A DNA stretch of 64,000 nucleotides, from NCBI RefSeq assembly GCF_054482595.1, contig NZ_CM137008.1. The stretch is one strand, 5' to 3'. Position numbers and translations under genes: made by a program. How positions within the stretch are numbered: the stretch's first letter is position 1; every line of letters begins with the position of its first letter. The notes under the pieces were generated by a model. That model ran no database searches, had not been told where the DNA came from, and worked only from the letters and a program-made list of their open reading frames with translations. Positions 36,394-63,700 of this stretch are shown piece after piece.

Positions 36394-36430
36394 GGTGTTG
36401 TGTCCGTTAGGTGCGGTTAATCAAATTTTT

Positions 36431-36465: not shown

Positions 36466-36607
36466 ACGGGCAATTTTACGGCCCCCATTAATCTCAAACT
36501 ATACCATTAGCACTGGAAGTTGGCACGTACAGGTGGGCAAAAAAACGAAAACTGGTCAACCAAATATCAGTTTGATTGACCAGTAAGTCTGTAGGGTAAT
36601 CAGTTAG

Positions 36608-38068
36608 TTACAGCGCAGCCACACACTCGCGCGCACCGCGTTCGCACAGCTGCTGATATGCCGCAGTCACCGCGCCAACAAAGTCGGCATTCTGCGGCAG
36701 ATCATCGGCAAAAATACCGCTCAGGCCCAGCAGCGCTTTCACGCGGTCTGCGCCCTGATACTGCGCGTTAATCTTCTGGAACTCGGCCAGCATCGGGTCG
36801 ACCACGTCAATGGCATTACCCTGCTCATCCACGCCCTGGGTGTAACGCATCCAGCCAGCCACGCCCAGCGCCAGGTGACGCCAGCTGCCGCCGTTTTGCA
36901 GGTGCAGACGCACCGGATCCAACAGACGCTGCGGTAACTTCTGGCTGCCGTCCATCGCAATCTGCCAGGTACGGTGACGCAGAGACGGGTTGCTGAAACG
37001 CTCGATCAGCAGCGTCGCATAGGCGTTCAGGTCCGTACCTTCCGGCATCGACAGCGTTGGCGCTTGTTCCTGCATCATCAGGGCAAAGGCCGCTTTGCGA
37101 TAATCCGGGTTAGTCATGGTGTCGGCAATAGTTTCATAGCCGCCGAGGTAACCGAGGTATGCCAGGAAAGAGTGGCTGCCGTTCAGCATACGCAGTTTCA
37201 TCATTTCGAACGGCACAACGTCTGCAACGAACTGTGCGCCCACTTTATCCCAGTCCGGACGACCATTAACGAAGTTATCTTCAATCACCCACTGACGGAA
37301 CGGTTCGCAGGCAATGGCGCACGGGTCGTAAACACCCAGCTGGTCAGCAATTTCCTGTAAGGTTTCTGGCGTCGCCGCCGGAACGATGCGGTCAACCATG
37401 GTGCACGGGAAGGTGACGTTCTCTTCAATCCATGCCGCCAGCTGCGGATCACGCGCCTGAGCCAGCCCCAGAACCGCGACCTTTGCCACATGACCGTTCT
37501 CACGCACGTTGTCGCAGGACATGACAGTAAACGCTTTCAGCCCTTTTTCACGACGCAGACGCAAGGCTTCGACGATGTAACCAATCGCGGACTTCGGCGC
37601 AGTCGGGTTTTCCAGATCGTGCTTGATCAGCGGGTTATTGAGATCCAGTTGACCGCTTGCCGCATCAGCGCAGTAGCCTTTTTCCGTGACCGTTAGAGAG
37701 ACAATCGCCGTTTGCGGACGCGCCATCGCGTTGAGAATACCTTCGCAGCCGTCGATTTCCGGATGCAGCGCTTCTTTCATCGAACCGATAATTTTCAGCT
37801 CGGTGCTTTCCGCGCCTTTTTCCGCCACGGTGTACAGCAGTTGCTGTTTTTTCAGGTTTTCGATCAGCACGCGGTCGTTGCCTGGCATCAGGTTAACTTC
37901 GCAGATGCCCCAGTCGCTGTCGGTGCTTTCCAGCAGATGATGGGTATACAGCGCCTGGTGCGCGCGGTGAAACGCCCCGCAACCGAGATGCACAATGCGT
38001 GATTCCAGACGAGAATGATCCCATGACGGGCGGGCAACCGGCAGATTGCTGTCAACAATAGTAGTCAT
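36608..38068 (-). CDS. uxuB: D-mannonate oxidoreductase UxuB, 486 aa
   Basis: Sequence recognised; Rossmann-type N-terminus (VHLGCGAFHRAHQ). Confidence 0.9.
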   Translation of the reverse strand: MTTIVDSNLPVARPSWDHSRLESRIVHLGCGAFHRAHQALYTHHLLESTDSDWGICEVNLMPGNDRVLIENLKKQQLLYTVAEKGAESTELKIIGSMKEALHPEIDGCEGILNAMARPQTAIVSLTVTEKGYCADAASGQLDLNNPLIKHDLENPTAPKSAIGYIVEALRLRREKGLKAFTVMSCDNVRENGHVAKVAVLGLAQARDPQLAAWIEENVTFPCTMVDRIVPAATPETLQEIADQLGVYDPCAIACEPFRQWVIEDNFVNGRPDWDKVGAQFVADVVPFEMMKLRMLNGSHSFLAYLGYLGGYETIADTMTNPDYRKAAFALMMQEQAPTLSMPEGTDLNAYATLLIERFSNPSLRHRTWQIAMDGSQKLPQRLLDPVRLHLQNGGSWRHLALGVAGWMRYTQGVDEQGNAIDVVDPMLAEFQKINAQYQGADRVKALLGLSGIFADDLPQNADFVGAVTAAYQQLCERGARECVAAL

Positions 38069-38148
38069 CGTAAACTCCAGAATCCGTCTTCAGAGAGTGA
38101 CGGCAAGGAAGAAGGAACCGGCACGGCGCGCAGCCATGCCGGTGGGTA

Positions 38149-39333
38149 TTAACGGCTAAAGAAAGCGCGCTGGATCGCCAGTTCGACACCGCGAACTTCG
38201 GCCAGGCCTTTCAGACGACCAATTGCGGAGTAACCAGGGTTGGTTTTCTTCTTCAGGTCGTCCAGCATCTGATGACCGTGGTCCGGACGCATCGGGATCA
38301 GGTCTTCTTTGCCTTCCGCTTTACGACGGTGTTCTTCTTCAACAATCGCTTTCACCACTTCGTACATATCAACGTCACCGTTCAGGTGCGCCGCTTCGTG
38401 GAAGGTTTTCGGGTTATCTTCACGCATGGTGGAGCGCAGATGGGTGAAATAAATACGCGGACCGAACTGCTTGATCATATCAACCAGATCGTTGTCAGCA
38501 CGCACGCCGTAGGAACCGGTGCACATGGTGAAACCGTTCGCCATGCTGTTTACGGTATCAACCATCCACTGCATATCTTCAATGGTGGAAACAATGCGCG
38601 GCAGGCCGAGGATCGGGCGCGGCGGATCGTCCGGGTGAACCGCCATACGCACGCCAACTTCTTCAGCAACTGGAATAATCGCTTTCAGGAAGACAGCAAA
38701 GTTTTCGCGCAGTTTGGCTTTGTCGATATCTTTGTACAGCTCCAGGTGCTTACGGAACTGGTCGAGGGTATACCCTTCTTCCGCGCCCGGCAGACCGGCA
38801 ATGATGTTACGCGTCAGACGCGCTTTGTCTTCGTCGCTCATAGTGGCGAAGCGTTCAGCTGCCTGAGCAATTTCTTCTTCGGTGTAATCCGCTTCCGCGC
38901 CTGGACGTTTCAGGATATGCATTTCGAATGCAGCGAATTCGATCTGGTCGAAGCGCAGAGCTTTGGAGCCGTCTGGCAGCACGTATTCGAGGTCAGTACG
39001 GGTCCAGTCGAGCACCGGCATGAAGTTGTAGCACACGGTGCGAATGCCGCACTGCGCCAGGTTGCGCAGAGTCTGCTGATAGTTAGCGATCCACTGCTCA
39101 TAGTTGCCAGTGTGGGTTTTGATATCTTCGTGAATTGGTACGCTTTCTACGACAGACCACACCAGGCCTGCGTCTTCAACGATCGCCTTGCGTTTGAGGA
39201 TCTCTTCTACGGACCATACTTCGCCGTTCGGGATATGGTGCAGCGCGGTAACCACGCCAGTTGCGCCCGCCTGACGGACATCAGCTAAAGAAACCGGATC
39301 GTTTGGGCCGTACCAGCGCCAGGTCTGTTCCAT
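38149..39333 (-). CDS. uxuA: Mannonate dehydratase UxuA, 394 aa
   Basis: Translation from the internal ATG ([23 protein letters not shown]...) with AGAGGA SD. The ORF-track extension to 39369 is rejected. Confidence 0.9.
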
Positions 39334-46633: not shown

Positions 46634-47173
46634 TTACTGATAGGTTAAAGAGAACCAGGCCTGTGCATTGGCGATGCCGCCAGTAACCCGACGCCCGGTA
46701 GCACGATATTTGGCGATGAAATGTAGCGAAGTAGAGCCTGAGTAAAGCCGTTTCCAGTTTACTGGAGGACGATTAATCGGTACGAGGTTTCCTTCATCAT
46801 CAAACAACGCTACGCCAATATTGGTGGCTATCCCTGGCCCCTCTCCCACGGAAAGCACATCCGGATTTTTACCATCCGCGACACCGTGAAACGCCACACC
46901 TACACGTTCACTCACCACCGTGCTACATTCCCGTAAATGAATAACAAAAGGCACCGGTGCGCTATCTTCCCCTACCGCATGAAACCGGTTACTGCTGATT
47001 TGCCCCATATTGACCGTCATTTGTTTATCACCGGCTTCAATCCGGCAAGTTTCCGCAATAATGACGCCCTGAAATTGCATATTTCCGCCGGGCAACGTGG
47101 TATTCCATTTATTTCCGGCCAGAGCAAACATTGGCAGCAACGACGCTAATAGAAATAATCTCTTCCTTTTCAT
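46634..47173 (-). CDS. fimI: Fimbrin-like protein FimI, 179 aa from the ATG at 47173; start position uncertain
   Basis: [30 protein letters not shown]...; the ORF track's longer 5' extension overlaps fimA. Confidence 0.8.
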
Positions 47174-47237
47174 CGTTATTTTTATCGCACAAGGGTGGGC
47201 ATCCCTGCCCGTAATAACGTCCCTGAACCTGGGTAGG

Positions 47238-47786
47238 TTATTGATACTGAACCTTGAAGGTCGCATCCGCATTAGCTGCGCCAGGGGTTGCGACACCGGT
47301 TGCATAATAACGCGCCTGGAACGGAATGGTGTTAGTACCGTTATTCAGGGTTGTTTGCTCACTGAATGTCGCACCATCCAGCGTCAGCGCAGCACCCGTT
47401 CTGTCCAGGATCTGCACACCAACGTTTGTTGCGCTACCCGCAGCTGAACTCTGCAGAGCCAGAACGTTGGTATGACCCGCATCAATCGCCGTACCTAAAA
47501 AGGCAACAGCGGCTTTAGATGCAACATTGGTATCGCAATCATTCAGCTGAATGTTAAAACCGACAGCAGAACTGGTTGCTCCTTCCTGTGCCAGCGATGC
47601 GGTACGAACCTGTCCTAACTGAACGGTTTGATCAACAGAGCCTGCATCAACTGCGCAAGCGGCGTTAACAACTTCCCCTTTAAAGTGAACGGTCCCACCA
47701 TTAACCGTCGTGGCAGCGGCCAGAGCCGCTGTAGAACTGAGGGACAGAGCCGACAGAACAACGATTGCCAGAGTTTTAATTTTCAT
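47238..47786 (-). CDS. fimA: Major type 1 fimbrial subunit FimA, 182 aa
   Basis: Sequence recognised. Confidence 0.9.
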
Positions 47787-47905
47787 GCTGCTTTCCTTTC
47801 AAAAAACTATTTCTAAATCGACATGGGCAGTCGTTCTGTACACTTTGTTTTGTCAACGAGTTTGACTGCCAACACTGCACAGTTTTCCCCCAAAAGATGA
47901 AACAT

Positions 47906-48219
47906 TTGGGGCCATTTTGACTCATAGAGGAAAGCATCGCGCACAAACTTTTTCAGTTTATTTGTTGGCTTAATATTCTATTGTTATCTTTATTTATAGA
48001 TTTTTATATTGCATGAGGTGGTTTTTGGAGAGAAGAATGAGGACGATGCGTCGAGTCACAGAAACGTTAGCTTTACATATAGTGGAGGTGATGTGAAATT
48101 AATTTACAAGAGAAATAATTTACATATCAAACAGTTAGGTGCTTTTTGTCGTTTTTTAATATTTTTATGCTTGAGAAAAAATACGTAACTTATTTATGAT
48201 ATGGACAGTTTGGCCCCAA
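47906..48219. promoter_or_regulatory. fimS: fim switch (fimS): 314-bp invertible element bounded by 9-bp inverted repeats TTGGGGCCA (47906-47914) and TGGCCCCAA (48211-48219); appears phase-OFF
   Basis: Both inverted repeats read directly and the length is exactly 314 bp. The best promoter inside the element points away from fimA. Confidence 0.8.
48171..48201 (+). promoter_or_regulatory. Sigma70-like promoter inside fimS (TTGAGA-18 bp-TATGATA) reading rightward toward fimE, away from fimA
   Basis: Hexamers read directly on the + strand next to the fimE-proximal inverted repeat. Confidence 0.5.
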
Positions 48220-48266
48220 TTGTCTTGTATTTATTTATTTTTTAACTTTATTATCAATAAGTTAAA

Positions 48267-48863
48267 TCAAACCTCTTCTCTTTTTAATTTTTCGTTTATG
48301 AGATTATTTCTTTCCCATAATCCGGCAAAACGAGCAGCATTACTGGCGGTATAACGCACAGTATGGCGAATATTTCGATGCCCGAGATAATCCTGAATTA
48401 AACGGGTATCTGCACCACGCTCCGCCAGTTCATAACCGCAAGCATGCCTTAACATATGAGGATGAGTCTGCGTTACGGTTCCAGCTTCAATACCGGCATC
48501 GCGAATAATGCGATAGGCCTGCTGGCGAGAAAGCCGACTCCCGCGGCGAGAAATAAATATAGCGTCGGTCCGGTCAGCGCCTTTCCAGTTAGCACGTTCC
48601 TGGGTCCAGCGTTCCACAGCTTCACGCTCATCAAAACGTAACGGGTGAACGGTAGAAAATCCGTTCTTCAGTCGGCGAATATTTATTCGACCTTCATTAA
48701 GGTCAAGATCCTGATAATGCAGATCAAGCAGTTCACTAATACGCATCCCATGCCGATATGCCAACAGAATAAGACAATAATCTCTGGCTCCCGTTGCCCC
48801 GTAACAAACCGCCTGCATCATGGCCTGAACTTCTTTACCGGTAAGATAACGACGTTTACTCAC
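48267..48863 (-). CDS. fimE: Tyrosine recombinase FimE (ON-to-OFF switching), 198 aa
   Basis: Sequence recognised; C-terminal R..H..R..Y recombinase motifs (HPHMLRHACGYELA ... LGHRNIRHTVRYT). Confidence 0.9.
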   Translation of the reverse strand: MSKRRYLTGKEVQAMMQAVCYGATGARDYCLILLAYRHGMRISELLDLHYQDLDLNEGRINIRRLKNGFSTVHPLRFDEREAVERWTQERANWKGADRTDAIFISRRGSRLSRQQAYRIIRDAGIEAGTVTQTHPHMLRHACGYELAERGADTRLIQDYLGHRNIRHTVRYTASNAARFAGLWERNNLINEKLKREEV

Positions 48864-49340
48864 AATAGTACTACTCCTAACTGAGATATATTTGAATGAA
48901 TACCTATAGGAAACCTCAATCGGTCAAAATTAGCCCAATAGATAAAAAGATAACCACACACGAAGTGATGTGGCTATCAGTCAATTACATTAAATATCAT
49001 ACAAAAATAAAATATCACTGACGTGACAACATCTATTTTCATTGATTTGATTCAATATAACAATAGATTGCAGTGGATTAACTTCCAGTTGCTTAAAAAA
49101 TAAAGAAAAAAGTGCGAAAACAGGAGAATTTAAGTGATGTGTAAATTTATGAATGATTTTGTTTATTTATTTTGAAGAACATAAACCATTGTATTTTGTA
49201 TGGATATGGTTAACTTAATGTTTATTATAATAATTAAGAATTATACTTACAATAACATCAATTAATAAATGGTTAATCATTTTTGATATATCGTAAGAAT
49301 AATGTAGTTTTTAACACCATCCCTGGTATCTCAACTATCT

Positions 49341-49943
49341 CTATAAAACAGCGTGACGCTGTCGTCCTCTGGCTCTATCCCAGATGCCGTAAAAACGCCC
49401 TGCATTGCTGGCGGTATACCAGACAGTATGACGAATATTGCGATGCCCAAGATAATCCTGGATAAGTCGCGTATCTATTCCCATATTCGCCAAAGCAAAA
49501 CCACACGAATGGCGTAACATGTGCGGATGAATCTCCAGTGACAACCCAGCATTACCACCGGAAGTCGAGATAATATGGTAAAATTGTTGCCGAGAAAGCG
49601 GATTCCCCTTACGCGACAAAAATACCCACTCGCTCTCAGCATGCGGATAAGAAGTACGGATACTCAACCAGTTTTTTAAAGCCTGAACTTCTTTGTTCAA
49701 TAGCGGGTGCGTTGTTGAAAAGCCTTTTTTTAATCGATGGATATATATACACTTTGCCTTAAGATCAATATCCGAAATCCTCAATCGACAAATTTCACTC
49801 GCCCGGAAACCATGAATAAAACAAAGCAAAGTCAGACAATAATTACGTGCTGCATGAGGCCCGGTATTTGCTGCTTTAAGGAGTGATTCGATTTCACTAT
49901 GGGTCAGGAAGTTCCTTTTTTTGTTATCAGCCTTATTCTTCAT
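49341..49943 (-). CDS. fimB: Tyrosine recombinase FimB, 200 aa
   Basis: Translation from the internal ATG: MKNKADNKKRNFLTHSEIESLLKAANTGPHAARNY... Confidence 0.9.
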   Translation of the reverse strand: MKNKADNKKRNFLTHSEIESLLKAANTGPHAARNYCLTLLCFIHGFRASEICRLRISDIDLKAKCIYIHRLKKGFSTTHPLLNKEVQALKNWLSIRTSYPHAESEWVFLSRKGNPLSRQQFYHIISTSGGNAGLSLEIHPHMLRHSCGFALANMGIDTRLIQDYLGHRNIRHTVWYTASNAGRFYGIWDRARGRQRHAVL

Positions 49944-50632
49944 CGTTTTTCCCTTATAATTACAGACGCGCACTAGCTGTGCTGGGTTAGTAATAATCCA
50001 ACATTTTTATCCTGATTATGTTTATAAAAGCGAACGTTTGCTTAATAACTAACGTAAGTGGACCAGTTCTTCTAAGTGAACTTAAATGGAGTAGCAACAG
50101 TTAATTATAATAACGTTGCCATACAAACGCTATGCTCTTGCATGCTATGTACCTTTATATATTTATCAATCGGATACGAATCTAATAATAACCCTCATCA
50201 TTAATGCAACTAATCTTATCTATATATCATGTGATATGTTCTGTAACAAGTAAAATCAACATAAAAAATTCAGCAAAATTTAATATTCGTTCAACTAGCC
50301 GTCTCACATATGACATTATTAGTCAACTCCATTTGCCACAAAATGGCTATTTCATGGAGCGCAGTAATTTCTTAGTGGCTATTATCATGCTAATTCTTAG
50401 GTCCCTAGCGATTATTCCTGGCTGGTTCGTCAGCTTACGCCATGAGATTGTTACATTCCTTTTTATCCTGGAGATATGGGGGAACGCAGGAGATGATTTT
50501 TTCATCTACATTCGTTGGTAAATATAGCTTTGGTCACTACGTAGACTGGCCCCCTGAATCTCCAGACAACCAATATCACTTATTTAAGTGATAGTCTTAA
50601 TACTAGTTTTTAGACTAGTCATTGGAGAGCAG

Positions 50633-50998
50633 ATGATTGATGTCTTAGGACCGGAGAAACGCAGACGGCGTACTACACAGGAAAAGATCGCTATTGTTCA
50701 GCAGAGTTTTGAACCGGGAATGACAGTCTCCCTTGTTGCCCGGCAACACGGTGTGGCAGCCAGCCAGTTATTTCTCTGGCGCAAGCAATACCAGGAGGGA
50801 AGTCTTACTGCTGTGGCCGCAGGAGAACAGGTCGTTCCTGCCTCTGAACTTGCTGCCGCCATGAAGCAGATTAAAGAACTCCAGCGCCTGCTCGGCAAAA
50901 AAACGATGGAAAATGAACTCCTTAAAGAAGCCGTTGAATACGGGCGTGCAAAAAAGTGGATAGCGCACGCGCCCTTATTGCCCGGGGATGGGGAGTAA
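50633..50998 (+). CDS. insC: IS2 transposase OrfA (InsC), 121 aa
   Basis: [29 protein letters not shown]...; A-AAA-AAG slippery heptamer at 50950-50956 for programmed -1 frameshifting into orfB. Confidence 0.85.
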
Positions 50999-51861
50999 GC
51001 TTAGTCAGCCGTTGTCTCCGGGTGTCGCGTGCGCAGTTGCACGTCATTCTCAGACGAACCGATGACTGGAAAGATGGTCGCCGCAGCCGTCACTCAGATG
51101 ATACGGATGTGCTTCTCCGTATACACCATGTTATCGGAGAGCTGCCCACATATGGTTATCGTCGGGTATGGGCGCTGCTTCGCAGACAGGCCGAACTTGA
51201 TGGTATGCCTGCGATCAATGCCAAACGTATTTACCGGATCATGCGCCAGAATGCGCTGTTGCTTGAGCGAAAACCCGCTGTACCGCCATCGAAACGGGCA
51301 CATACCGGCAGAGTGGCTGTGAAAGAAAGTAATCAGCGATGGTGCTCTGACGGGTTCGAGTTCCGCTGTGATAACGGAGAAAAACTGCGAGTCACGTTCG
51401 CGCTGGACTGCTGTGACCGTGAGGCACTGCACTGGGCGGTCACTACGGGCGGCTTCAACAGTGAAACAGTACAGGACGTCATGCTGGGAGCGGTGGAACG
51501 CCGTTTCGGCAACGAGCTTCCGGCGTCTCCAGTAGAGTGGCTGACGGATAATGGTTCATGCTACCGGGCTAATGAAACACGGCAGTTTGCCCGGATGTTG
51601 GGGCTTGAACCGAAGAACACGGCGGTGCGGAGTCCGGAGAGTAACGGCATAGCAGAGAGCTTCGTGAAAACGATAAAGCGTGACTACATCAGTGTCATGC
51701 CCAAACCAGACGGGTTAACGGCAGCAAAGAACCTTGCAGAGGCATTCGAGCATTATAACGAATGGCATCCGCATAGTGCACTGGGTTATCGCTCGCCACG
51801 GGAATATCTACGGCAGCAAGCCAGTAATGGGTTAAGTGATAACAGGTGTCTGGAAATATAG
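50956..51861 (+). CDS. insD: IS2 transposase OrfB (InsD), DDE catalytic domain, 301 aa
   Basis: ORF-track ORF overlapping insC in the -1 frame; sequence recognised. Confidence 0.85.
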
Positions 51862-52294
51862 GGGCAAATCCACTACGACTTAAACCTTCCTCAATCACAG
51901 CCATTCGCCGGGCGATACGGCAAACAAACTAAGTGAAACATCATCCTGAAAACACCAACATCAACAAGCCTCTCCAGATCGACTTCAGAAGTGACCAGTT
52001 ACAAGCCACAAACCAGGAAACATATTTCATGATGAGAATTATGCTCAGCCTGATGGCGGGTAAACACTGATTTTCACCAAGCTCACTGAGTTAGCTTGCA
52101 AAGCTTCCCTTGTTTAGACTCTAAATAAATTATTTATAAAACAAATAGTTAAACAAAAATCTTTAGTTTTTGAAGACCACTGCAAGTGTTCGTCTGGCTT
52201 CACATGGCATCTTCCTCTTAGAAAAAGATCGACATATTTTGTGACACGAATTGCAAATCTGGTTTTGTTGTATGGATTGCGTGATTTTTGATCT

Positions 52295-52317
52295 GGTATA
52301 ACAGGTATAAAGGTGCA
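52295..52317. promoter_or_regulatory. NanR operator-like GGTATA repeats (GGTATAACAGGTATAAAGGTGCA) upstream of nanC
   Basis: Two perfect and one degenerate GGTATA hexamers read directly, about 420 bp upstream of the nanC start. Confidence 0.5.
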
Positions 52318-52734
52318 CCAAGATAGTCAATGAGACAGGGCATCTCGCAATCTATGGCAAACATCACTTCAGTTCTTTCTCATCGGGTGATGAAAACGCA
52401 CTTCAGTCTGAAAGGAATATGAAAATGAGATCAACAGACACTCTATTTTATGACTCTGGGTAAAATGGATTGAGTAAGTGATATAGCTTACGAAAATTCA
52501 AATCAATTAAACATCAGCAGAGATTTTATACTCAGGTATTTAATCTGGCTCTCTGTTTATTTAAATAATGTGAAAAGAGATTTTTCACAGGAGACCTTAT
52601 ACAAAAAATATAAAATACAGCTACCGGTTGCCAAAGACACTATAAGCCTGGCAAAAAAATATTACACAACATAAATGCTAATTGTTTATGCGGGCTTTGT
52701 ATTGCTTTCTGTATCCTACAAATGAGTGAAATTT

Positions 52735-53451
52735 ATGAAAAAGGCTAAAATACTTTCTGGCGTATTATTACTGTGCTTTTCGTCACCATTAATTTCTCAG
52801 GCTGCGACACTTGACGTGCGTGGTGGATATCGTAGTGGAAGCCACGCCTATGAGACTCGACTCAAAGTCAGTGAGGGATGGCAAAATGGATGGTGGGCAA
52901 GTATGGAAAGTAATACCTGGAATACCATTCATGATAATAAAAAGGAAAATGCCGCACTCAATGATGTTCAGGTTGAAGTTAATTACGCGATTAAACTTGA
53001 TGATCAATGGACGGTGCGCCCGGGAATGTTAACGCATTTTAGCAGCAACGGCACACGCTACGGACCCTACGTAAAACTGTCCTGGGACGCGACAAAAGAT
53101 CTTAATTTTGGCATTCGCTATCGTTACGACTGGAAAGCTTACCGACAACAAGACTTATCCGGTGATATGTCTCGTGATAACGTTCATCGTTGGGATGGAT
53201 ATGTCACTTACCATATTAATAGTGATTTCACCTTCGCATGGCAAACGACGCTATACAGCAAACAGAACGATTATCGCTATGCAAACCATAAGAAATGGGC
53301 TACGGAAAATGCATTTGTTCTACAATACCATATGACGCCCGATATTACGCCATACATAGAATATGACTACCTGGACCGTCAGGGTGTTTACAACGGCAGA
53401 GATAATTTATCGGAAAACAGTTATCGCATTGGTGTGTCATTTAAACTGTAG
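52735..53451 (+). CDS. nanC: N-acetylneuraminic acid outer membrane channel NanC (KdgM family), 238 aa
   Basis: MKKAKILSGVLLLCFSSPLISQAATLDVRGGYR...; beta-barrel porin pattern. Confidence 0.85.
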   Translation: MKKAKILSGVLLLCFSSPLISQAATLDVRGGYRSGSHAYETRLKVSEGWQNGWWASMESNTWNTIHDNKKENAALNDVQVEVNYAIKLDDQWTVRPGMLTHFSSNGTRYGPYVKLSWDATKDLNFGIRYRYDWKAYRQQDLSGDMSRDNVHRWDGYVTYHINSDFTFAWQTTLYSKQNDYRYANHKKWATENAFVLQYHMTPDITPYIEYDYLDRQGVYNGRDNLSENSYRIGVSFKL

Positions 53452-53470
53452 TAGACAGGAGACAGTCACA

Positions 53471-54577
53471 ATGAATAAAACAATAACGGCGCTTGCTATC
53501 ATGATGGCTTCATTTGCCGCAAACGCGTCTGTATTACCGGAAACTCCTGTGCCATTTAAAAGTGGTACCGGAGCAATTGATAACGACACTGTCTACATTG
53601 GTTTAGGTAGCGCAGGTACGGCATGGTACAAGCTGGATACACAGGCCAAAGATAAAAAATGGACAGCGTTAGCTGCATTCCCTGGTGGACCAAGAGATCA
53701 AGCAACCTCTGCATTTATTGATGGCAATCTGTATGTGTTTGGCGGCATTGGCAAAAACAGCGAGGGCTTGACTCAGGTATTTAATGACGTACACAAATAC
53801 AACCCCAAAACCAATAGCTGGGTTAAATTGATGTCGCACGCGCCGATGGGCATGGCGGGCCATGTGACTTTTGTACACAACGGCAAGGCTTATGTTACTG
53901 GCGGTGTTAACCAGAATATCTTCAATGGCTATTTTGAAGATCTCAACGAAACTGGAAAAGATTCAACCGCTATAGATAAAATCAATGCCTACTATTTTGA
54001 CAAAAAAGCAGAAGATTATTTCTTCAATAAGTTTCTGTTGTCTTTTGATCCCTCAACACAGCAATGGAGTTACGCTGGCGAATCGCCCTGGTACGGAACG
54101 GCTGGTGCGGCGGTTGTGAATAAAGGTGATAAAACCTGGCTTATTAATGGCGAAGCCAAACCCGGATTGCGAACGGATGCCGTATTTGAACTTGATTTCA
54201 CCGGTAATAATTTAAAATGGAATAAGCTTGCTCCCGTCTCATCACCAGATGGCGTCGCTGGCGGTTTTGCGGGGATAAGCAATGATTCTCTTATATTTGC
54301 CGGAGGGGCCGGATTCAAAGGTTCACGAGAAAATTACCAGAACGGTAAGAACTATGCGCATGAAGGCCTGAAAAAATCATATAGCACTGATATTCATCTT
54401 TGGCATAACGGGAAATGGGATAAATCTGGTGAATTATCGCAAGGTCGGGCCTACGGAGTATCATTGCCCTGGAATAATAGTCTATTGATTATTGGCGGTG
54501 AATCTGCAGGCGGCAAAGCGGTGACGGATTCAGTTTTGATCTCTGTGAAGGATAATAAAGTTACAGTACAAAACTAA
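53471..54577 (+). CDS. nanM: N-acetylneuraminate mutarotase NanM (Kelch-repeat beta-propeller), 368 aa
   Basis: Translation from the internal ATG at 53471 (AGGAGA SD): MNKTITALAIMMASFAANASV... Confidence 0.85.
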   Translation: MNKTITALAIMMASFAANASVLPETPVPFKSGTGAIDNDTVYIGLGSAGTAWYKLDTQAKDKKWTALAAFPGGPRDQATSAFIDGNLYVFGGIGKNSEGLTQVFNDVHKYNPKTNSWVKLMSHAPMGMAGHVTFVHNGKAYVTGGVNQNIFNGYFEDLNETGKDSTAIDKINAYYFDKKAEDYFFNKFLLSFDPSTQQWSYAGESPWYGTAGAAVVNKGDKTWLINGEAKPGLRTDAVFELDFTGNNLKWNKLAPVSSPDGVAGGFAGISNDSLIFAGGAGFKGSRENYQNGKNYAHEGLKKSYSTDIHLWHNGKWDKSGELSQGRAYGVSLPWNNSLLIIGGESAGGKAVTDSVLISVKDNKVTVQN

Positions 54578-54640
54578 CGCTTCAGGGCCCCAGTAAAGGG
54601 CCCTGCTATCAATTTATCATTTCAATTACGCGAAAATTAT

Positions 54641-55621
54641 ATGGACGCAATAATATCGCCCGATTATTACTATGTTCTTACCGTTGCTGGTCAGTCTAAT
54701 GCCATGGCGTATGGCGAAGGACTGCCATTACCGGACAGGGAAGATGCGCCTCATCCCAGAATTAAACAATTAGCGAGATTTGCGCATACGCATCCCGGAG
54801 GCCCGTCATGTCACTTTAACGACATTATTCCACTGACTCACTGCCCACACGATGTTCAGGATATGCAGGGTTATCACCATCCTCTGGCAACGAATCATCA
54901 AACACAGTACGGCACCATTGGCCAGGCACTGCATATTGCACGGAAATTACTGCCCTTTATTCCTGATAACGCAGGGGTTCTCATCGTTCCATGTTGCCGT
55001 GGCGGATCGGCTTTTACCGCGGGCAGCGAGGGGACATATTCAGAACGGCACGGAGCCAGCCATGATGCTTGTCGTTGGGGAACGGATACTCCGCTATACC
55101 AGGATTTAGTCAGCAGAACGCGAGCCGCATTGGCAAAAAATCCGCAGAACAAATTCCTCGGCGTATGCTGGATGCAAGGCGAATTTGACTTAATGACCAG
55201 TGACTACGCGTCACACCCTCAACACTTTAATCATATGGTTGAAGCCTTTCGTAGGGATCTAAAACAATACCATTCTCAGCTTAATAATATTACTGATGCG
55301 CCCTGGTTCTGCGGCGATACCACCTGGTACTGGAAAGAAAATTTCCCTCATGCGTATGAAGCTATTTATGGCAATTATCAAAATAATATTTTAGCTAATA
55401 TTATTTTCGTCGACTTCCAGCAACAAGGTGCAAGAGGACTGACGAACGCGCCTGATGAAGATCCGGACGATTTAAGCACGGGATATTACGGTTCAGCGTA
55501 CCGGTCACCGGAGAACTGGACGACGGCACTGCGAAGCAGTCATTTCAGCGCGGCAGCCCGTCGGGGGATTATTTCTGACAAGTTTGTAGAAGCAATTTTG
55601 CAGTTTTGGCGCGAAAGGTGA
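54641..55621 (+). CDS. nanS: 9-O-acetyl-N-acetylneuraminate esterase NanS, 326 aa
   Basis: Sequence recognised (YjhS/NanS). Confidence 0.8.
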   Translation: MDAIISPDYYYVLTVAGQSNAMAYGEGLPLPDREDAPHPRIKQLARFAHTHPGGPSCHFNDIIPLTHCPHDVQDMQGYHHPLATNHQTQYGTIGQALHIARKLLPFIPDNAGVLIVPCCRGGSAFTAGSEGTYSERHGASHDACRWGTDTPLYQDLVSRTRAALAKNPQNKFLGVCWMQGEFDLMTSDYASHPQHFNHMVEAFRRDLKQYHSQLNNITDAPWFCGDTTWYWKENFPHAYEAIYGNYQNNILANIIFVDFQQQGARGLTNAPDEDPDDLSTGYYGSAYRSPENWTTALRSSHFSAAARRGIISDKFVEAILQFWRER

Positions 55622-55775
55622 GCGTTCATTAATTTGATTTATTCGCATCCATCAGCGCTTTTAACTCCTCCGGCGTAAACGGTGGTTTGCGTAGGTGCAA
55701 CATCGCATGGCAATTAGGGCACACAGGCAGCAAAAAAACAAATGAGATCAAAGTAATATATCTTCACTTGCAGGC

Positions 55776-56705
55776 TTGAACAGCAGAAAATTTGCGAGCA
55801 TGATCGCAATTATTTCACTGCCAGGGATATCAATGGCTTCCAGTAAATCGCTACAGCAGGCAATTGCCAATATAAAAATCTGGCATAAGGGTGAACAGCG
55901 CGCACCGCATAAACCATTGTTATTGCTATACGTATTAGCGGGATACCTGAATGGACATCCACGCCTTTTCGATTATGGATCGGAAATCTACGAACCTCTG
56001 CACAGTTTACTGGAACGTTTTGGGCCACAGCGTTCACAGTACCGACCTGATATGCCGTTCTGGCGATTACAAGGCGACGGATTCTGGCAATTACACAATG
56101 CCGAGCTTTGCTCAACAGCAGGGAGCAGCCGACAACCGCCAGTGAAGGAACTGAACGAATACCACGTTGCAGGCGGTTTCGATGAACAGCACTACGCCTT
56201 GGTAACCGGCAATAAAAAACTCATCAATACTCTGGCGCAACAGATACTCGAAGCGCACTTCACCGAGAGTATTCAGGAAGAAATTGCTGACGAGCTGGGT
56301 TTTGATCTCCAGCAAATCCGTAAACAGTGCGACCCGTTATTTCGCAAAAATGTATTACGCGCTTATAAATACCAGTGCGCGATATGTGGCTTTAATATGC
56401 GCCACGACGACACCACCGTCGCGCTGGAAGCGGCGCATATAAAATGGAAACAGCACGGCGGTCCTTGTGAAATTCCTAATGGCCTGGCGCTTTGCGCAAT
56501 TCACCATAAAGCCTTTGATAAAGGATCGATTGGCCTGGACGAAAATATGCGGGTACTGGTATCAGATGCGGTAAACGGCGGAGGGATCGTTGAGAGATTA
56601 TTCTGGGATTTTGACGGGAAAACTATTGCGTTGCCGCAGGTGCGTAAAAATTACCCTTATGAGGTGTTTGTAGAGTGGCATCGGAAAGAGGTTTTTAGGG
56701 GGTGA
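55776..56705 (+). CDS. HNH endonuclease with an N-terminal putative modified-DNA reader domain; candidate Type IV restriction enzyme, 309 aa
   Basis: C-terminal HNH motif CAICGF ... LEAAHIKWKQHGGPCEIPNGLALCAIHHKAFDKG. The N-terminal domain (APHKPLLLLYVL ... MPFWRLQGDGFWQL) has no catalytic motif recognised. An alternative start is the ATG at 55833. Confidence 0.6.
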   Translation: MNSRKFASMIAIISLPGISMASSKSLQQAIANIKIWHKGEQRAPHKPLLLLYVLAGYLNGHPRLFDYGSEIYEPLHSLLERFGPQRSQYRPDMPFWRLQGDGFWQLHNAELCSTAGSSRQPPVKELNEYHVAGGFDEQHYALVTGNKKLINTLAQQILEAHFTESIQEEIADELGFDLQQIRKQCDPLFRKNVLRAYKYQCAICGFNMRHDDTTVALEAAHIKWKQHGGPCEIPNGLALCAIHHKAFDKGSIGLDENMRVLVSDAVNGGGIVERLFWDFDGKTIALPQVRKNYPYEVFVEWHRKEVFRG

Positions 56706-57017
56706 GGTAGCCATTATATATCTTTCACCTAGGATTTTAAATGTAATAGATAAAGTATTTTCTGACACCGAAAGTAGTATTTATGAGTACATAGCCACAA
56801 ATCAATTTTAAAATCTCAATATAAAATACGTTTACAAATATTCTAGTCAGAGTAAATATATATTCATTATAAGAGAATCCAATTATTAACCAATCGAAAT
56901 TACAAATTAAAAAACAATTGGCATGTTGAATTGTACACTAATTTATATACATAGTAAATTTACATCTATTCATGATATAATTATCGTGATATCAATTCAT
57001 TAATCAGGAAAATCATA

Positions 57018-57320
57018 ATGGAATTGTTAAATACTTATGATGATAAAGAAACAGCTGAAATATTTTTTGAAAAAATAGACGGAGAGAAAAGATTAGCAAG
57101 TGAGAGAGATGCTACAGAAACAGTCTATAACCTCTTCGGGCAACCAACATGGAAAAACTTTTATCTTCTTGATATGTTTAACCTAAAAGAGTTACAAGGG
57201 ATTATAGAGTGTAGAAAAAATGGACAGCCGTTCGACCAGGAACGACACAGGGAAATAATAAAAATGCTTGAATATGCAGCAAAATCGTTTGACCTAATTA
57301 TTCCTGCACATTGGCGATAA
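57018..57320 (+). CDS. Hypothetical protein, 100 aa, AT-rich, convergent with the Res-like gene
   Basis: ORF-track ORF preceded by aggaaaatcata; no family recognised. Confidence 0.35.
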   Translation: MELLNTYDDKETAEIFFEKIDGEKRLASERDATETVYNLFGQPTWKNFYLLDMFNLKELQGIIECRKNGQPFDQERHREIIKMLEYAAKSFDLIIPAHWR

Positions 57321-57322
57321 TA

Positions 57323-57355
57323 TCTGTTCCATATCTCACAGAGATATGGAACAGA
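57323..57355. terminator. Bidirectional hairpin between the 100-aa ORF and the Res-like gene
   Basis: tctgttccatatctc-acag-agatatggaacaga read directly. Confidence 0.55.
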
Positions 57356-57366
57356 ATCATAATTAT

Positions 57367-60300
57367 TTACTCGCTAACCATCTTACTGAATAACTTCTCC
57401 AGATAAACGGGGCCTGTATCCTCAATAAAAAGCACATTTCTGGCTTCCAGATTTTCTTTTGAGTCAGGTACGTTTACTAAGTCAACATAACAAGTTTCAG
57501 AAACAATAAATGCACTTAATGATAAGTTATCATCCGATAATTTATGTTCAAGATTCTTAATTTCTTTATATAATCCGAACTTCGGATCATCAAGATTAAG
57601 ATTGCGAATGCCTTTTGGATCAATAAGACTTAGCCATTGTTTACCACTTTTATCATCGACTAACCACAATAAGAAATCCGGATAAAAATTACCCGCAGTA
57701 GCAAAGCCCAGGCCTTTATTTTTAGAATCCGCATTTCTTAGCAGATATAAACTTTTATCACCAATAATTTTCTGCCCTTTTGTCGAATCAACAAAAGACT
57801 GAAGATCCTGAACAAAAGTAATCTCGCTTGGCGCACCAAGTGCTGCCGGTCGCATTTTTAGCGGTATATTGGCATTTTTTTCAATCGAAAGAAGCGGGTA
57901 ATAGAGATGTTTATCAAAGGTAATAGCAACCATCCCGGATGCACTCCAGGATTTTGCTTTACCGATTTCGCCGTCGATGACCAATTGTTGTAATTGTTCC
58001 AGCCGACTGGCATAAGCCAACCCATCATCAGTTTCTTCGATCTCGAAATGGTACATTTTGATCATACCAGGATCATCTTCTTTCACCTGCGTGACTTCAT
58101 AAAACTGACCTTCATAAGCATTTTTCAAGGTGTTGTAAAAGCGATCAGTATAATCAGTCAGCAGACGAAGCATAATATCTTCCTGCTTAGCAATATCTGC
58201 ATATTGCTTAATCTCAAGCTCTGAAGCTGGAATCAAAAGGGTATACCAACTATTTCCGATCTTTGTCTTACCGGTACAAAAGTCGATCAAACGTTGTTTA
58301 TCCACACGTAAATTTGACCAGCCGCGTTGTAGTTTATAATTCTGAATGGCGAGATAAAGCCGATCAAAATCAAATGCACTAATGATTTTATAATCTAACT
58401 TCGCTTCATTGCGCACGTTAACCGGAGTATTGTCCCCTTTTCTGCTGGTATCAATCGACTCAAGTTTCGGGTATAAGTCCAGCTTAATATGCGGCTGCTT
58501 AATTTTCCCCTGAAAATCAGCAGGAACTTCATACAATTCAGGAAAATAGACACGTTTAAAGCCGAGTCTTTGATTATCTTTATAACCATCTTTAAGCTTA
58601 AGTGTTTTAAGCCTGGTTGCTGGCATATTTGGCCGAGTTTCAAAATTCAGCTCAAGGATCTCGTCACTTGGCGTAATCCCTTCATCTTCCAGGTATTGTT
58701 TAAAGGTTGCCATGTAATCGGCACGTACACCGAATACATTCAGTGTCTCTAATTTTTCCAGATGCAACCCTTTCGGACGCTCACCGGGTGTACTGCGTTT
58801 CAAAGAATAATTGCGACCTTTAAGGCGTACGCCACGACCAAATAACTGAATGATCTGTGAACCTTCTCCACGGCCCATATTGAGCAATCCCATCGTTGAG
58901 ACGCGCCAACTGCTCCAGCCTTCAGTAAATTTTCGCGAGCCGATCAAAATATGTAGTCGCGAGTCTTTGTCATTTAACGTATGAAAGAGTGACTTTGCAA
59001 AATCATCTCTCTGATAATCAAATGTCGTATCCTCTTCACACATTTTGTAAAGAGACGGTGCATCACCAATATTGATAAGGCCAAACGGTTCGGCCTCACC
59101 AACCTGTAATGCCAGTTCACCTTTACTGCCTATTAAATTCAGAACTCGCAGTCGCTGACCAGAGTGAGTGGTGTTAAACAAGCGAGAAAGAATATCTGCG
59201 TAGATATCTTCCGGAGCGTTCATTAGTGCAGTAAAGCGATTTTCAAAAATGTTACGCTCTTTGGTATCGAGGATTCGCGCTTTATTTTTAATGAGATCGT
59301 TAATCCACGCTTTTGCCTGCGTTTCGTGGTTTAAAAACCATGCTAAAAAACGCAATACTGCGTGAATGTCTGAATCTTCACCACTTACCGTATTACCGAC
59401 AAAAACCCACAGCGGTTTTTCGATATTAAATTCACTTAATTTTTCTTTATTCTTATTGAATAAATATTGTTGCTGATAAAAGCTGAGCAAACACGCGGTA
59501 AAATACTCATACCGACGCTCATCTTTTTTATCCTCTTCAGGATTAAGGTTAAGAATCAGTGATTCTTTACCATAACCATCCTCATAGAAGAATTTATAGG
59601 AGTAATCGAACAGAATCGATTTTCCATAGACCTCTCGCGTCGCCTGAATACGCGCATCTCGTTTTTCTTCGCTGGTTAATGCTATTTGCGCTAACTCTTC
59701 TTCGTTCAGTTTACCTAAGGCCGTTGTTTCAAAAAGCAGCTTTGCTTTTTTCTTCTGAATTTCTGTTTCAACTGCCTCAACATTATTGCCACCGGCTACT
59801 GCCTGGCCAAAAGTTGCTGAATATTCAAACGCAAATCCGTCACGTGTTAATTTGTCACGACGGCGCATCCAGGCACCAGCAGCACTTCCGGTGCCTTTAT
59901 GCCCTTCATCAATCAGAACCAGATTGTTGCCTTCAAATGCCTCAACGGCAACAGTTTTGTCACCCATTTCATCGGCAAGTTTATTGATATCAATAACTTC
60001 AATCGTGCCTTTGAAGGGCGCAGATTTACTCTTATCGAATAACTGGTATTGGGTAAATCCTGAGTTTTCCAGCTCATCTAAATGTTGCTTCGACAGGCGT
60101 TCATCCGGAGTAAGCAGGATGATTTTGTCGGGGTAATGGTGGGTATTACCGTTCTGGAAATAATGTAAGTATTGCAAAATATTGACATGCAATAGCAGTG
60201 TCTTACCAGAACCAGTAGCATTCCAGTATGCCAGTTTATTCAAATCATCCAGAATATATGATTTGAACTGATTAGCCCGGTCTTTTGCTGTTTTATCATT

Positions 60301-60747
60301 TTCAGCATTGTATGCTGCCAGCTCGTTATTTAGCCCATCGAGTAATTGCTGTTTACGATTGAAGTACCAGTCCAGGTAGATCTCGGTAAACAAAAGCGAC
60401 AAGTACTGAAAATATTTCATGTTCAGCACAGTGTCTTCTTTGCGATTACGGTGCTCAGTTATCTGCTGCCAGTGCTGCACGATATTGAGATCGTAACGAC
60501 GCAGTTCATCGAGATCGATAAGATCGACCTCGAATAAATAGTTACTCAGCTCATGGAAGAACAAACTTTGGCCATCCTCATGGATGCCTTCAAAGCGATC
60601 TTCACCTAACCGATTCTTCAGACCTTGCAATGTGCCATCTTTAAAAAAATGGAACATAAAGCGGTTCAAAACCAGTTGCTTATGAAAGCTCAGTTTGCTG
60701 TTTGTCTCTTTTTTAACAGCTTTACCGGTGGTCGGTTTTTTAGCCAT
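57367..60747 (-). CDS. Type III restriction Res-like subunit: SF2 helicase core with C-terminal PD-(D/E)XK nuclease motif, 1126 aa
   Basis: Motif I WNATGSGKT, motif II VLIDEGHKG, motif III SATFG, motif VI QLFGRGVRL; C-terminal YPDFLLWLVDD ... LIDPKG (PD ... DxK). Strong GGAGGAGG SD; start lies 2 nt after the Mod-like stop. Confidence 0.75.
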   Translation of the reverse strand: MAKKPTTGKAVKKETNSKLSFHKQLVLNRFMFHFFKDGTLQGLKNRLGEDRFEGIHEDGQSLFFHELSNYLFEVDLIDLDELRRYDLNIVQHWQQITEHRNRKEDTVLNMKYFQYLSLLFTEIYLDWYFNRKQQLLDGLNNELAAYNAENDKTAKDRANQFKSYILDDLNKLAYWNATGSGKTLLLHVNILQYLHYFQNGNTHHYPDKIILLTPDERLSKQHLDELENSGFTQYQLFDKSKSAPFKGTIEVIDINKLADEMGDKTVAVEAFEGNNLVLIDEGHKGTGSAAGAWMRRRDKLTRDGFAFEYSATFGQAVAGGNNVEAVETEIQKKKAKLLFETTALGKLNEEELAQIALTSEEKRDARIQATREVYGKSILFDYSYKFFYEDGYGKESLILNLNPEEDKKDERRYEYFTACLLSFYQQQYLFNKNKEKLSEFNIEKPLWVFVGNTVSGEDSDIHAVLRFLAWFLNHETQAKAWINDLIKNKARILDTKERNIFENRFTALMNAPEDIYADILSRLFNTTHSGQRLRVLNLIGSKGELALQVGEAEPFGLINIGDAPSLYKMCEEDTTFDYQRDDFAKSLFHTLNDKDSRLHILIGSRKFTEGWSSWRVSTMGLLNMGRGEGSQIIQLFGRGVRLKGRNYSLKRSTPGERPKGLHLEKLETLNVFGVRADYMATFKQYLEDEGITPSDEILELNFETRPNMPATRLKTLKLKDGYKDNQRLGFKRVYFPELYEVPADFQGKIKQPHIKLDLYPKLESIDTSRKGDNTPVNVRNEAKLDYKIISAFDFDRLYLAIQNYKLQRGWSNLRVDKQRLIDFCTGKTKIGNSWYTLLIPASELEIKQYADIAKQEDIMLRLLTDYTDRFYNTLKNAYEGQFYEVTQVKEDDPGMIKMYHFEIEETDDGLAYASRLEQLQQLVIDGEIGKAKSWSASGMVAITFDKHLYYPLLSIEKNANIPLKMRPAALGAPSEITFVQDLQSFVDSTKGQKIIGDKSLYLLRNADSKNKGLGFATAGNFYPDFLLWLVDDKSGKQWLSLIDPKGIRNLNLDDPKFGLYKEIKNLEHKLSDDNLSLSAFIVSETCYVDLVNVPDSKENLEARNVLFIEDTGPVYLEKLFSKMVSE

Positions 60748-60749
60748 TC

Positions 60750-63700
60750 TTAAACCTCCTCCGCAAACATCAGGTTCAAGAATTCAGGTTCGATCTGGCG
60801 GATTTTCAGGCTACGAACAATCTCGCCGTCTTCTTCATCAACGGTAAAGGCGGTAGGCAAGTTATGATCGCCATTGATATAGATAACGTCATACGTGTTT
60901 TCTTTTGCATACAAATCAAATCGGTTAGCATATTTATTCAATTCTTCATAACCGATCTTGTCGCAATCGCGCCACAGAATAAGGGTACGCTCGCCTGTTG
61001 GCAGCGTACCTTCAACACGCACATAGCCACGTTCGATATTGGATTCGATGGATTTCACATGTAATCCAATGAGATAGTTGAAAGTTTCAACTAAATCGAT
61101 GTTTTTACGCTCAGTGGCACCGGCGGAATCCGTCGCAATATCCATTTCGTAGTTAAATGGTTTTTTGAAATTATCGATTCCGAGAAAAGAATCTTTACTC
61201 TCATTTTTAATGAGATAATTTAATAGATAATCATTCCTCACATCTGAAGGCAATGTTTCGAAAAGATCTATGGGAGATTTTTTCAGTACTATATTATTTA
61301 AGCAATCTTCATAGCTTTCTAGTTTAATTGTTTTAAGAATATGTGATATACCGTTTTTATCCTGTGGATAACCTTTATTCCACTTATCGCTATAAACGGC
61401 TTTTACAATTCTAGCTTTTATAACTGAATCAGAATGTTCTCCCATTTCAACTAATATATATTTATGATCTTCAGATTTTTCTCTATTTCTATTAATAACA
61501 GCATGTGCGGTGGTTCCACTGCCGCCAAAAAGATCGACTATGGTTTCATTATTAGCACTATGCCATACTGAATCAATAACGCGTTCCATAGTACCTAAGG
61601 ATTTTGGATAAGAAAACAAACCTGCAGAGCCAAACATGGACGTTAATAAATTTGTGCCACCTATGGTAGCATTATATTGTGATCCTTGCCAAATACTAGG
61701 AAGCAGTAACCTTCTTGCGCTATCATGATATAATCTGTTTATGACAAATTTGTTTGAACTTACCAATTCACCTACTTCAATTGCTTTTTTAGCCCCTTCA
61801 TAAGAAAGCGACCAAACTCTTTCTTCCCCATTCTCACCAATGGGATAGACTCTTTTTAAACCTTCTTTGGTTTCACCTACCGGATAATTACCTTTTTCTA
61901 AAGGAACAGGTGGTGGTTCGACTCCTTTAACTTCAAATGTATCAGGGTCAACCAAAACTGCAAAAAAGCTTTCTGGACGACCAGGATTACCAATCCTAAA
62001 ATTATTATCTCCGGTACCAGCTCTTCTAAAACCTCTAGTTCGAATTCCATCCTCCACACTATCCCCTTTGAGAATATCCATTCCTTCTGGTATAGAAAAC
62101 AGACAATATTCATGTGTTCTCGAAACATTTGTTCTACCTGTCCCAGACCCAGGATAGTGCTCAACGATACATTGTAAAACCTCTCTTTCTGGATTGATAC
62201 TTTTTTCCAATTCTTTTAAAAGAGACATTTCTGTATCATCAATAGCATAACAAAAAACACCGTTATTATTTAATAGTTTTTTAGATAAAATGATTCTATC
62301 AGCCATTAATGTAGCCCATGAAGAATCCTTATATCCATTTTTATATAAGATAGGAGTTGCATCAGTATTATATGGTGGATCAAGATATATTATGCTTGTA
62401 CTTTTATCAAACTTAGTCTCAAGGATTTTTAGGGCTTGATAATTTTCAGAGTTGACCAATAGCCCATTAATCTCATTATCAATATTATCAATTGATCGAA
62501 TCAGTTCACATTTAAATTTAGAATCAAAAAAAGTAGTATCAACCATCAGATATGGTGAACTCTTGAGAAATTTCATATCCCGAGAGTTATGCTGTTGAAA
62601 TAGACCTAGCGTACTCCAATGTTTAAATTGTTTATCATTTACTAATATAGTTTGATAAAGAGCATCTGGAATTCTATCTAAAGTAATACAGTATTCCGTA
62701 GAAACAACAAACTTCTTCTTAGTCCAAAGTTTTTTCTGGAAATTCTCAATTTGTGCCAAAAATGTAATGAGTTCCAGTGCAACAGTACGCAAACATTGAA
62801 TCATGCGCAATTGTTTCTCAATATTGGCAAACACTTCTGCATTTTGCACATTATCGAGATTCATTACTTCATTTTTAATATAAAAATCCAGTTCGTTCGT
62901 TAAAAAACCACCGAGATCTTTATGGATAAAGTAGTCTGCTGTATTACGCTGGGTATAAGTTGTAAGGTGACGCTCCAACTCTGTACGTGACGGATTTTTT
63001 TCTGTTGGCGCACGTTTAGCAAGATCAACCCAATGCTGTTGAACTGTTTTATCTGCCAGAATTGTTGAAATAGCGGACTGTACTAAAGCATCCTGCTTAG
63101 TGCCCTTTTTCATTGCCTTATATTCGAAGTGAATAACTAACTCTTCTGTTTCAACGAGTTTACCGTCCACCACAGATGAGTTTTTCACCACTTCTACTGG
63201 CTTATATTCTTGTTCATACTCATCACCTTCTTCATCAATTTTGGTACGAACATGTGGCTCAATAAGTACAAAGCAGCGATCTAATTCATTATCCTTACGG
63301 TTATCTTTTGCTGTGTCCGCTGCGAGCAATTTAAAGCTAACTTTACGACCATCATCTAATTTAAATGAATAATTAGCAAAGTTTTCGCCACTTTTAATGT
63401 AGTACTGGTCCTTATTTGCCCAGTGCAACATCACTTCTTCGCCAGAATAAGGGATGGCGTAGGTATTACCTTTATAACGGCGTTTGCTGATAAAATCGCC
63501 GTTGTCATAATAACGAGAAAAGAAAGTGAGCAGATGGGAAAATACTGCATTTTCATGCTCATTTGCTCCGGATGCCATAGCCGCCAGTTGCTTTTTAAGC
63601 TCCTGTACTTTCGGGCTATCAGCAGGGTCCACACCCGCATCAGTTGCCGCTTTTATTGTCAGTTGCAACTGATGTTCTAATTCTGATTTATTGGCATTTC

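Follow-up and report, generated by a model that had tools for sequence, protein, structure and literature searches.

A recent IS2 insertion between fimB and its distal NanR and NagC operators in an Escherichia coli chromosome

We analysed a 64,000-nucleotide stretch of an Escherichia coli chromosome (NCBI RefSeq assembly GCF_054482595.1, contig NZ_CM137008.1; hereafter the window, read on one strand and numbered from its first letter), in which a complete copy of the insertion sequence (IS) IS2 lies in the spacer between the recombinase gene fimB and nanC. The element transposed there recently, and by lengthening the DNA between the fimB promoter and the distal NanR and NagC operators it most likely weakens or abolishes the activation of fimB by these two regulators, an effect that we infer with a probability of roughly 0.55. 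FimB sets the frequency at which type 1 fimbriae are switched ON in E. coli, and its dampening by sialic acid and N-acetylglucosamine (GlcNAc) probably serves to adjust adhesion to the state of inflammation in the host. The parts of the inserted element are as follows.

50537-50541, no strand: left copy of the target-site duplication, CTACG, present once in the empty allele
50542-51872, plus strand: complete IS2 isoform of 1331 bp, left end toward fimB and right end toward nanC
50542-50583, plus strand: left terminal inverted repeat (IRL), about 41-42 bp, found by inverted-repeat detection, its terminal 41 bp equal to those of K-12 IS2A
50633-50998, plus strand: orfA (InsC, the IS2 TnpA repressor), 121 amino acids, protein identical to K-12 InsC1
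50950-50956, plus strand: programmed -1 frameshift motif AAAAAAG, which joins orfA to orfB, conserved with K-12
50956-51861, plus strand: orfB (InsD, the catalytic part of the IS2 transposase), 301 amino acids, 10 amino-acid differences from K-12
51832-51872, plus strand: right terminal inverted repeat (IRR), about 41 bp, one mismatch to K-12
51873-51877, no strand: right copy of the target-site duplication, CTACG, read from the sequence

An earlier note on this DNA had described a complete IS2 with intact orfA and orfB and a frameshift site, and the description is borne out on each count. Our K-12 reference copy was IS2A of E. coli K-12 MG1655 (NC_000913.3, 381260-382590), to which the window element aligns end to end without a gap, with 59 mismatches (95.6% identity); the orfA gene carries 19 synonymous changes and no amino-acid change. 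The orfB frame overlaps orfA in the -1 frame, the A6G slippery site AAAAAAG is kept, and each protein is matched from end to end by its NCBIfam model, with a score that exceeds the curated cut-off (TnpA: NF006928, 276 bits, cut-off 229; TnpB: NF006918, 710 bits, cut-off 597). The IS2-specific terminal tips (5'-TAGACTGG ... AAATCCA-3') are likewise present. The element shares with IS2A of K-12 its length of 1331 bp, near-identical terminal repeats, the orfA/orfB organisation, the A6G -1 frameshift and the 5-bp duplication, and differs from it by the 59 substitutions and the 10 amino-acid changes in OrfB. Judged by its sequence it is IS2, a member of the IS3 family, all structural features that we tested being in agreement; the annotation by the NCBI Prokaryotic Genome Annotation Pipeline names it only as 'IS3 family transposase'.

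A comparison with IS-free alleles, proposed in the earlier note as a check, was carried out and confirms that the CTACG target duplication is genuine and correctly placed. With the IS2 and one CTACG removed, the spacer measures 1456 bp, and 13 complete E. coli genomes, XH990 and O157:H16 Santai among them, carry it unchanged from end to end (100% identity). XH990, which originates from human urine in Zhejiang, has a single CTACG at the empty site and is shorter than the window by exactly 1,336 bp; positions 26500-50541 joined to 51873-64000 of the window show zero mismatches to it across 36.2 kb, and positions 1-27000 differ from it only by one 6-bp indel (ATAAAG, 19560-19565), which sits inside a pentapeptide-repeat protein gene with internal repeats, and by two single-nucleotide polymorphisms (21750 and 23630). 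Because XH990 carries the empty site with its single CTACG and no mismatch over those 36.2 kb, the insertion is recent, a transposition specific to this strain by an isoform that is probably active in the lineage. Copies of the window isoform at 100% identity occur in at least 40 records, and the sister strains TUM18780, TUM18530, APEC37, AHM21C2872I and DETEC-C31 have the empty site and hold the identical isoform elsewhere. Such copies, standing at many different sites in sister strains, and the full-length TnpB match lend indirect support to an intact DDE transposase and to transposition activity. In other genomes the identical copies often lie in or adjoin fimbrial genes (e.g. 4 matches) or ydeR (e.g. 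3), or fall in one and the same defence-system gene, labelled 'TOTE conflict system' (e.g. 4 matches). This suggests either that the isoform prefers regions that are AT-rich or were acquired horizontally, or that copies were inherited at shared sites.

That the feature is an assembly error, or that its direct repeats are mere coincidence, is extremely improbable: we found no point in favour of either, the element is exactly 1331 bp long with perfect IS2 ends, its offset to XH990 is exactly 1,336 bp, and perfect 5-bp duplications flank all 14 other IS2 copies examined in the spacer. The earlier note had raised coincidental repeats itself, together with the presence of the same IS2 in the common reference allele. 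Neither applies, as near-identical sister strains hold the single-CTACG empty site, the left IS2 junction of the window site occurs in 0 of 5,426 complete E. coli genomes, and the K-12 fimB-nanC spacer (1455 bp) is uninterrupted.

The insertion was next placed among the known control elements of fimB. Positions 47238-55621 hold the minus-strand genes fimA, fimE and fimB and the plus-strand genes nanC, nanM and nanS, which is the gene order of K-12, reverse-complemented. The features that frame the insertion are these.

49341-49943, minus strand: fimB, encoding the FimB recombinase, intact, ATG at 49943, identical to fimB of XH990
50214-50249, minus strand: inferred fimB promoter, -35 TTGTTA at 50249-50244, 17-bp spacer, -10 TATATA at 50226-50221
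50382-50393, minus strand: SlyA operator O_SA1, exact match to the sequence in PMC3173223
50397-50408, minus strand: SlyA operator O_SA2, exact match to the sequence in PMC3173223
52021-52043, minus strand: NagC operator O_NC2, exact match to the 'fimB2' site in Table 1 of PMC3098098
52233-52255, minus strand: NagC operator O_NC1, exact match to the 'fimB1' site in Table 1 of PMC3098098
52295-52309, plus strand: NanR operator core, GGTATA-N3-GGTATA, read from the sequence
52735-53451, plus strand: nanC, intact open reading frame, ATG at 52735

The fimB transcription start (about 50214) was back-calculated from the published positions of the SlyA operators (PMC3173223), and the promoter hexamers were read directly from the sequence. 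In K-12, the SlyA sites lie at -167 to -194 relative to the fimB start and overlap H-NS2 and H-NS3, H-NS protection upstream of fimB extends from about -500 to +150, and O_NR (the NanR operator), O_NC1 and O_NC2 lie at about -760 to -470, from where NanR and NagC activate fimB at a distance, their inducers reducing fimB expression (PMC3173223). The NanR operator is built of GGTATA repeats, as described in PMC8012715. Once the IS2 is removed, the coordinates of the distal operators in our sequence agree with the published range of about -760 to -470, and O_NC1 and O_NC2 are separated by 212 bp, as expected.

The IS2 sits at about -327 of fimB, between the SlyA operators and O_NC2 and within the H-NS zone reported for K-12. 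The distances to the fimB start and to the NanR operator, given in the earlier note as about 600 and 420 bp, come to 598 bp from the fimB ATG to the IS2 site and 418 bp from the IS2 to the first GGTATA; in addition, 134 bp separate O_SA2 from the element, 148 bp its right end from O_NC2, and 858 bp the element from the nanC start. The further claim that the insertion adds 1.3 kb between fimB and the distal NanR and NagC sites is upheld by the exact operator matches and the 1,336-bp shift. The known operators and the promoter are undamaged, and the fimB promoter and both SlyA operators remain on the fimB side, whereas the module of NanR, IHF and NagC sites, at about -470 to -760 in the empty spacer, is pushed outward as one block and now occupies about -1,806 to -2,096. 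O_NC2 now lies about 1.8 kb from the inferred fimB start, and with the IS2 in place the operator-to-promoter distance is no longer that of K-12. As to other features of this region, no RNA family was found by Rfam in 47000-53500, and the 9-bp inverted repeats of the fim invertible switch (TTGGGGCCA) are present at 47906-47914 and 48211-48219; the alignment shows the switch collinear with MG1655 in its reference orientation, without an inversion break.

In the explanation that we propose, an active IS2 isoform, one widespread in this lineage of E. coli, recently entered the spacer between fimB and nanC and duplicated CTACG. O_NC2, the IHF region, O_NC1 and O_NR, the whole long-range activation module, now stand 1,336 bp further from the fimB promoter. 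The greater distance would weaken or remove NanR- and NagC-dependent activation, which in turn would lower basal fimB expression, make OFF-to-ON switching of the type 1 fimbriae less frequent, and leave fimB less responsive to GlcNAc and to sialic acid. SlyA and H-NS would still control fimB, as NanR and NagC would nanC. For nanC itself no change is expected, its promoter region and operators all being located between the IS2 and the gene. Sohanpal et al. (2007, Mol Microbiol 63:1223) reportedly found that activation increases when the NanR, IHF and NagC sites are moved closer to the promoter, and that 270 bp below O_NC2 are dispensable for regulation. It is because of this reported distance dependence that we favour a weakened NanR/NagC input. 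Two points weigh on the other side: even without the IS2 the operators work over distances above 470 bp, so that a further 1.3 kb might be tolerated; and the GC-rich IS2 (52.7% against 35.9% for the surrounding spacer) could disrupt H-NS silencing and raise fimB expression.

The first of these points leads to the view that the insertion is real but a neutral passenger that leaves fimB and nanC essentially as they were, the activators simply tolerating the distance, which we consider possible, if on the unlikely side. The site lies within DNA that, as reported in the same study, can be deleted without loss of regulation, and the event, being very recent and known from one strain, would not yet have been exposed to selection. 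Moreover, the promoter and all known operators are intact, and the activators normally work from 470-760 bp (PMC3173223). It has to be set against this that the operator distance grows about 3- to 4-fold (about 4-fold for O_NC2). The reported strengthening of activation by closer operators also implies that distance matters.

The second point leads in the opposite direction, namely that the IS2 breaks an AT-rich H-NS tract and thereby raises fimB expression and fimbriation, in the manner of IS elements upstream of flhDC or bgl, which we find doubtful. The site at -327 is inside the H-NS-protected region of -500 to +150 (PMC3173223), an element of 52.7% GC has entered a spacer of 35.9% GC, the spacer is a repeated IS2 target (see below), and IS elements in the flhD regulatory region affect motility (PMC4444293); recurrent insertion into H-NS-bound, AT-rich upstream DNA, as expected where an IS relieves H-NS silencing, is indeed what we find. 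H-NS2 and H-NS3, the sites shown to matter for fimB, are nevertheless untouched and promoter-proximal, and the loss of activator input would push expression the other way. Weakened activation by NanR and NagC remains the reading that we prefer.

For the nanC side, the earlier note had suggested that IS2 could form an outward hybrid promoter, and here the sequence gave no support. The transposase reading direction and the IRR of the window IS2 do both point to nanC, and the IRR of IS2 carries the -35 element of the promoter that arises at the minicircle junction. A hybrid ampC promoter formed by IS2 was reportedly described by Jaurin and Normark (1983). The hexamers that lie 16-18 bp past the TGGAAA of the IRR are CTACGA, TACGAC and ACGACT, none of them with the conserved A2/T6, so that no usable -10 is at hand, and a promoter scan returned no plus-strand promoter-like site near 51850-51900. 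O_NC2, O_NC1, the NanR operator and the nanC promoter region also intervene before the nanC start. We therefore consider it very unlikely that the IRR supplies a promoter that drives or deregulates nanC. The window insertion has in common with the ampC case the element itself and the orientation of the IRR end toward the downstream gene, and differs from it in lacking a correctly spaced resident -10 and in the 858 bp that separate it from the target gene.

The spacer has been entered by IS2 repeatedly. Four composite junction queries, covering both IS2 orientations and both sides of the window site, found IS2 in the fimB-nanC spacer of 33 other assemblies (13 + 9 + 11 + 0), the query for a minus-orientation IS2 on the fimB side returning 0 assemblies. 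We mapped 14 of the loci, with one or two representatives per multi-genome group, and assigned the other group members by identical match span in the search tables; a perfect 5-bp duplication was present at 14 of 14. The sites are listed by coordinates counted in the empty spacer from the base adjoining the fimB ATG, with the orientation of the IS2 and the duplicated target.

288-292, plus: GTGAT, 9 genomes (the YJ6 group)
575-579, plus: GTAAA, 2 genomes, 19 bp from the window site
594-598, plus: CTACG, the window
1148-1152, plus: GAGAT, Eco_23-2667
1201-1205, plus: GATAT, 8 genomes
1202-1206, plus: ATATA, TOK-001
about 1327-1331, plus: AAAAA, PK8568
1148-1152, minus: GAGAT, WS4437A-1
1202-1206, minus: ATATA, GPEC1176
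1335-1339, minus: AATAC, c1-17
1358-1362, minus: GACAC, 5 genomes with two different IS2 isoforms
1368-1372, minus: CCTGG, 40EC
1370-1374, minus: TGGCA, ECONIH5

The isoform varies from copy to copy, with as many as 59 mismatches, and site, orientation and isoform together distinguish at least 13 independent events besides the window, or at least 14 with it. Three 5-bp targets were used twice independently: GAGAT and ATATA in both orientations, and GACAC by two isoforms. The 12 distinct 5-bp targets used in the spacer, CTACG of the window included, share no evident consensus. Orientation is balanced over the events (7 plus, 7 minus), which led us to reject a global orientation bias; the three fimB-proximal sites are all plus, too few to mean anything. 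The 33 assemblies compare with roughly 5 expected for 5,109 spacers of 1.46 kb at the general density of IS2 (19,811 chromosomal matches over 5,426 genomes, each about 5 Mb long), a comparison uncorrected for shared ancestry. Overall, the pattern may reflect target preference or selection, either one.

Most events lie near nanC: 10 of the 13, the window not counted, fall within 227 bp of the nanC leader (window-equivalent 52427-52653), where an insertion should cut nanCMS off from the NanR-controlled promoter. At the other end of the spacer, the K-12-type IS2 of the YJ6 group (GTGAT duplication, window-equivalent 50231-50235) falls within the 17-bp spacer between -35 and -10 of the inferred fimB promoter, and its nine genomes (YJ6, ETEC6, 2 HS-C, EcPNK006, M23917, two O9:H10 pig isolates and others) are, on this sequence, probably natural fimB promoter knock-outs. 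Junctions of this group were examined in YJ6 and ETEC6, both with the IS2 at 1470-2800 of the extracted locus. Other elements have also entered the region. JMF1, whose spacer is 99.7% identical to that of the window, carries the IS5-like ISKpn26 in the same spacer (about 2158-3348 of the extracted locus), about 650 bp upstream of fimB, and also an IS1 adjoining fimB. TOK-001, WS4437A-1 and ECONIH5, which have IS2 near nanC, have also lost or had truncated fimB, fimE, fimA and parts of the fim operon, through deletions or disruptions associated with IS1; as judged from these loci, the fim region is IS-eroded in several lineages.

A possible cue for targeting was found near the window site.

50468-50482, plus strand: IRR-like motif CTGGAGATATGGGGG in resident DNA, in agreement with the IS2 IRR core at 13 of 15 positions

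It is the sole 13/15 match to the IRR core in the 64-kb window (0.08 expected), and lies 59 bp to the left of the IS2 in the window; from the insertion of HCP8S3_I1, an independent event, the distance is 40 bp. The motif may be a transposase-recruiting cue for the fimB-proximal cluster or a coincidence, and we offer it as a lead only. As a general rule, targeting by sequences resembling the inverted repeats was rejected, since scans of the spacer with 25 nucleotides of IRL and IRR did no better than shuffled sequences (84 of 300 and 147 of 300 reached the best score), and no IRR-like motif was found in the nanC-leader hot zone.

Taken together, the recurrent insertions allow a broader reading, speculative and in our judgement improbable, in which the spacer is a selected landing zone for IS2 that provides heritable alternative settings of the circuit linking sialic acid to fimbriation, with the IRR-like motif perhaps recruiting transposase. 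Three classes would follow: fimB uncoupled from NanR and NagC (the window, HCP8S3_I1 and MSB1_1D), the fimB promoter killed (the nine genomes of the YJ6 group), and nanCMS severed from its promoter (the at least 10 nanC-leader events), in a manner that can be likened to IS switching at flhDC.

IS2 repeatedly remodels this spacer in wild strains, which matters when fimbrial or nanC phenotypes are inferred from gene presence alone. Furthermore, the window strain and XH990 form a natural pair for studying the distance dependence of fimB activation by NanR and NagC, the operators being moved by 1.3 kb within 36.2 kb of otherwise identical DNA. Elsewhere in the window, a defence or restriction island lies downstream of nanS beside a tRNA-Leu gene (about 55800-64000; equivalent to 27700-38946 of the locus extracted from XH990), with genes for a phosphorothioated-DNA-binding restriction endonuclease, a DEAD/DEAH helicase, a DNA methyltransferase and an SNF2-related protein. 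At about 5500-10500, GmrSD and 3'-5' exonuclease genes replace the hsd/mcr genes of K-12.

Among the closest known systems is the long-range activation of fimB in K-12 (Sohanpal et al. 2004, 2007; McVicker et al. 2011, PMC3173223), with which the window shares the exact operators, the 212-bp spacing of the NagC sites, and the intact promoter and SlyA sites, differing by an operator distance larger by 1,336 bp. The recurrence recalls IS1 and IS5 upstream of flhDC and at bgl, where independent insertions likewise recur in AT-rich, H-NS-bound upstream DNA (for flhD, insertions in the regulatory region are cited in PMC4444293), with the difference that most of the IS2 insertions in the spacer lie in the nanC leader, not upstream of fimB. 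The window strain holds a natural example of an operator distance increased by about 1.3 kb, for which we know of no laboratory construct. Some K-12 stocks carry fimE::IS1, and Nissle 1917 is naturally fimB-null. In E. coli B, fimB is interrupted by IS1 (PMC5379014). The fimB::IS1 and fimE::IS1 alleles are, like the window insertion, natural IS-borne variation in the control of the type 1 fimbrial phase switch, but there the coding sequence is interrupted, whereas the window IS2 spares fimB and alters the cis-regulatory geometry only. In the literature searched, we found no prior report of IS2 or another IS in the fimB-nanC spacer. An IS2 burst during 1,200-day stationary-phase evolution of K-12 included an insertion within the nanC coding sequence, at nucleotides 502-506 of 717 (PMC7858067), which is not the same site, being inside the gene and away from the leader hot spots. 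Compared with these systems, the window event is a new insertion site and a familiar, routine kind of IS polymorphism.

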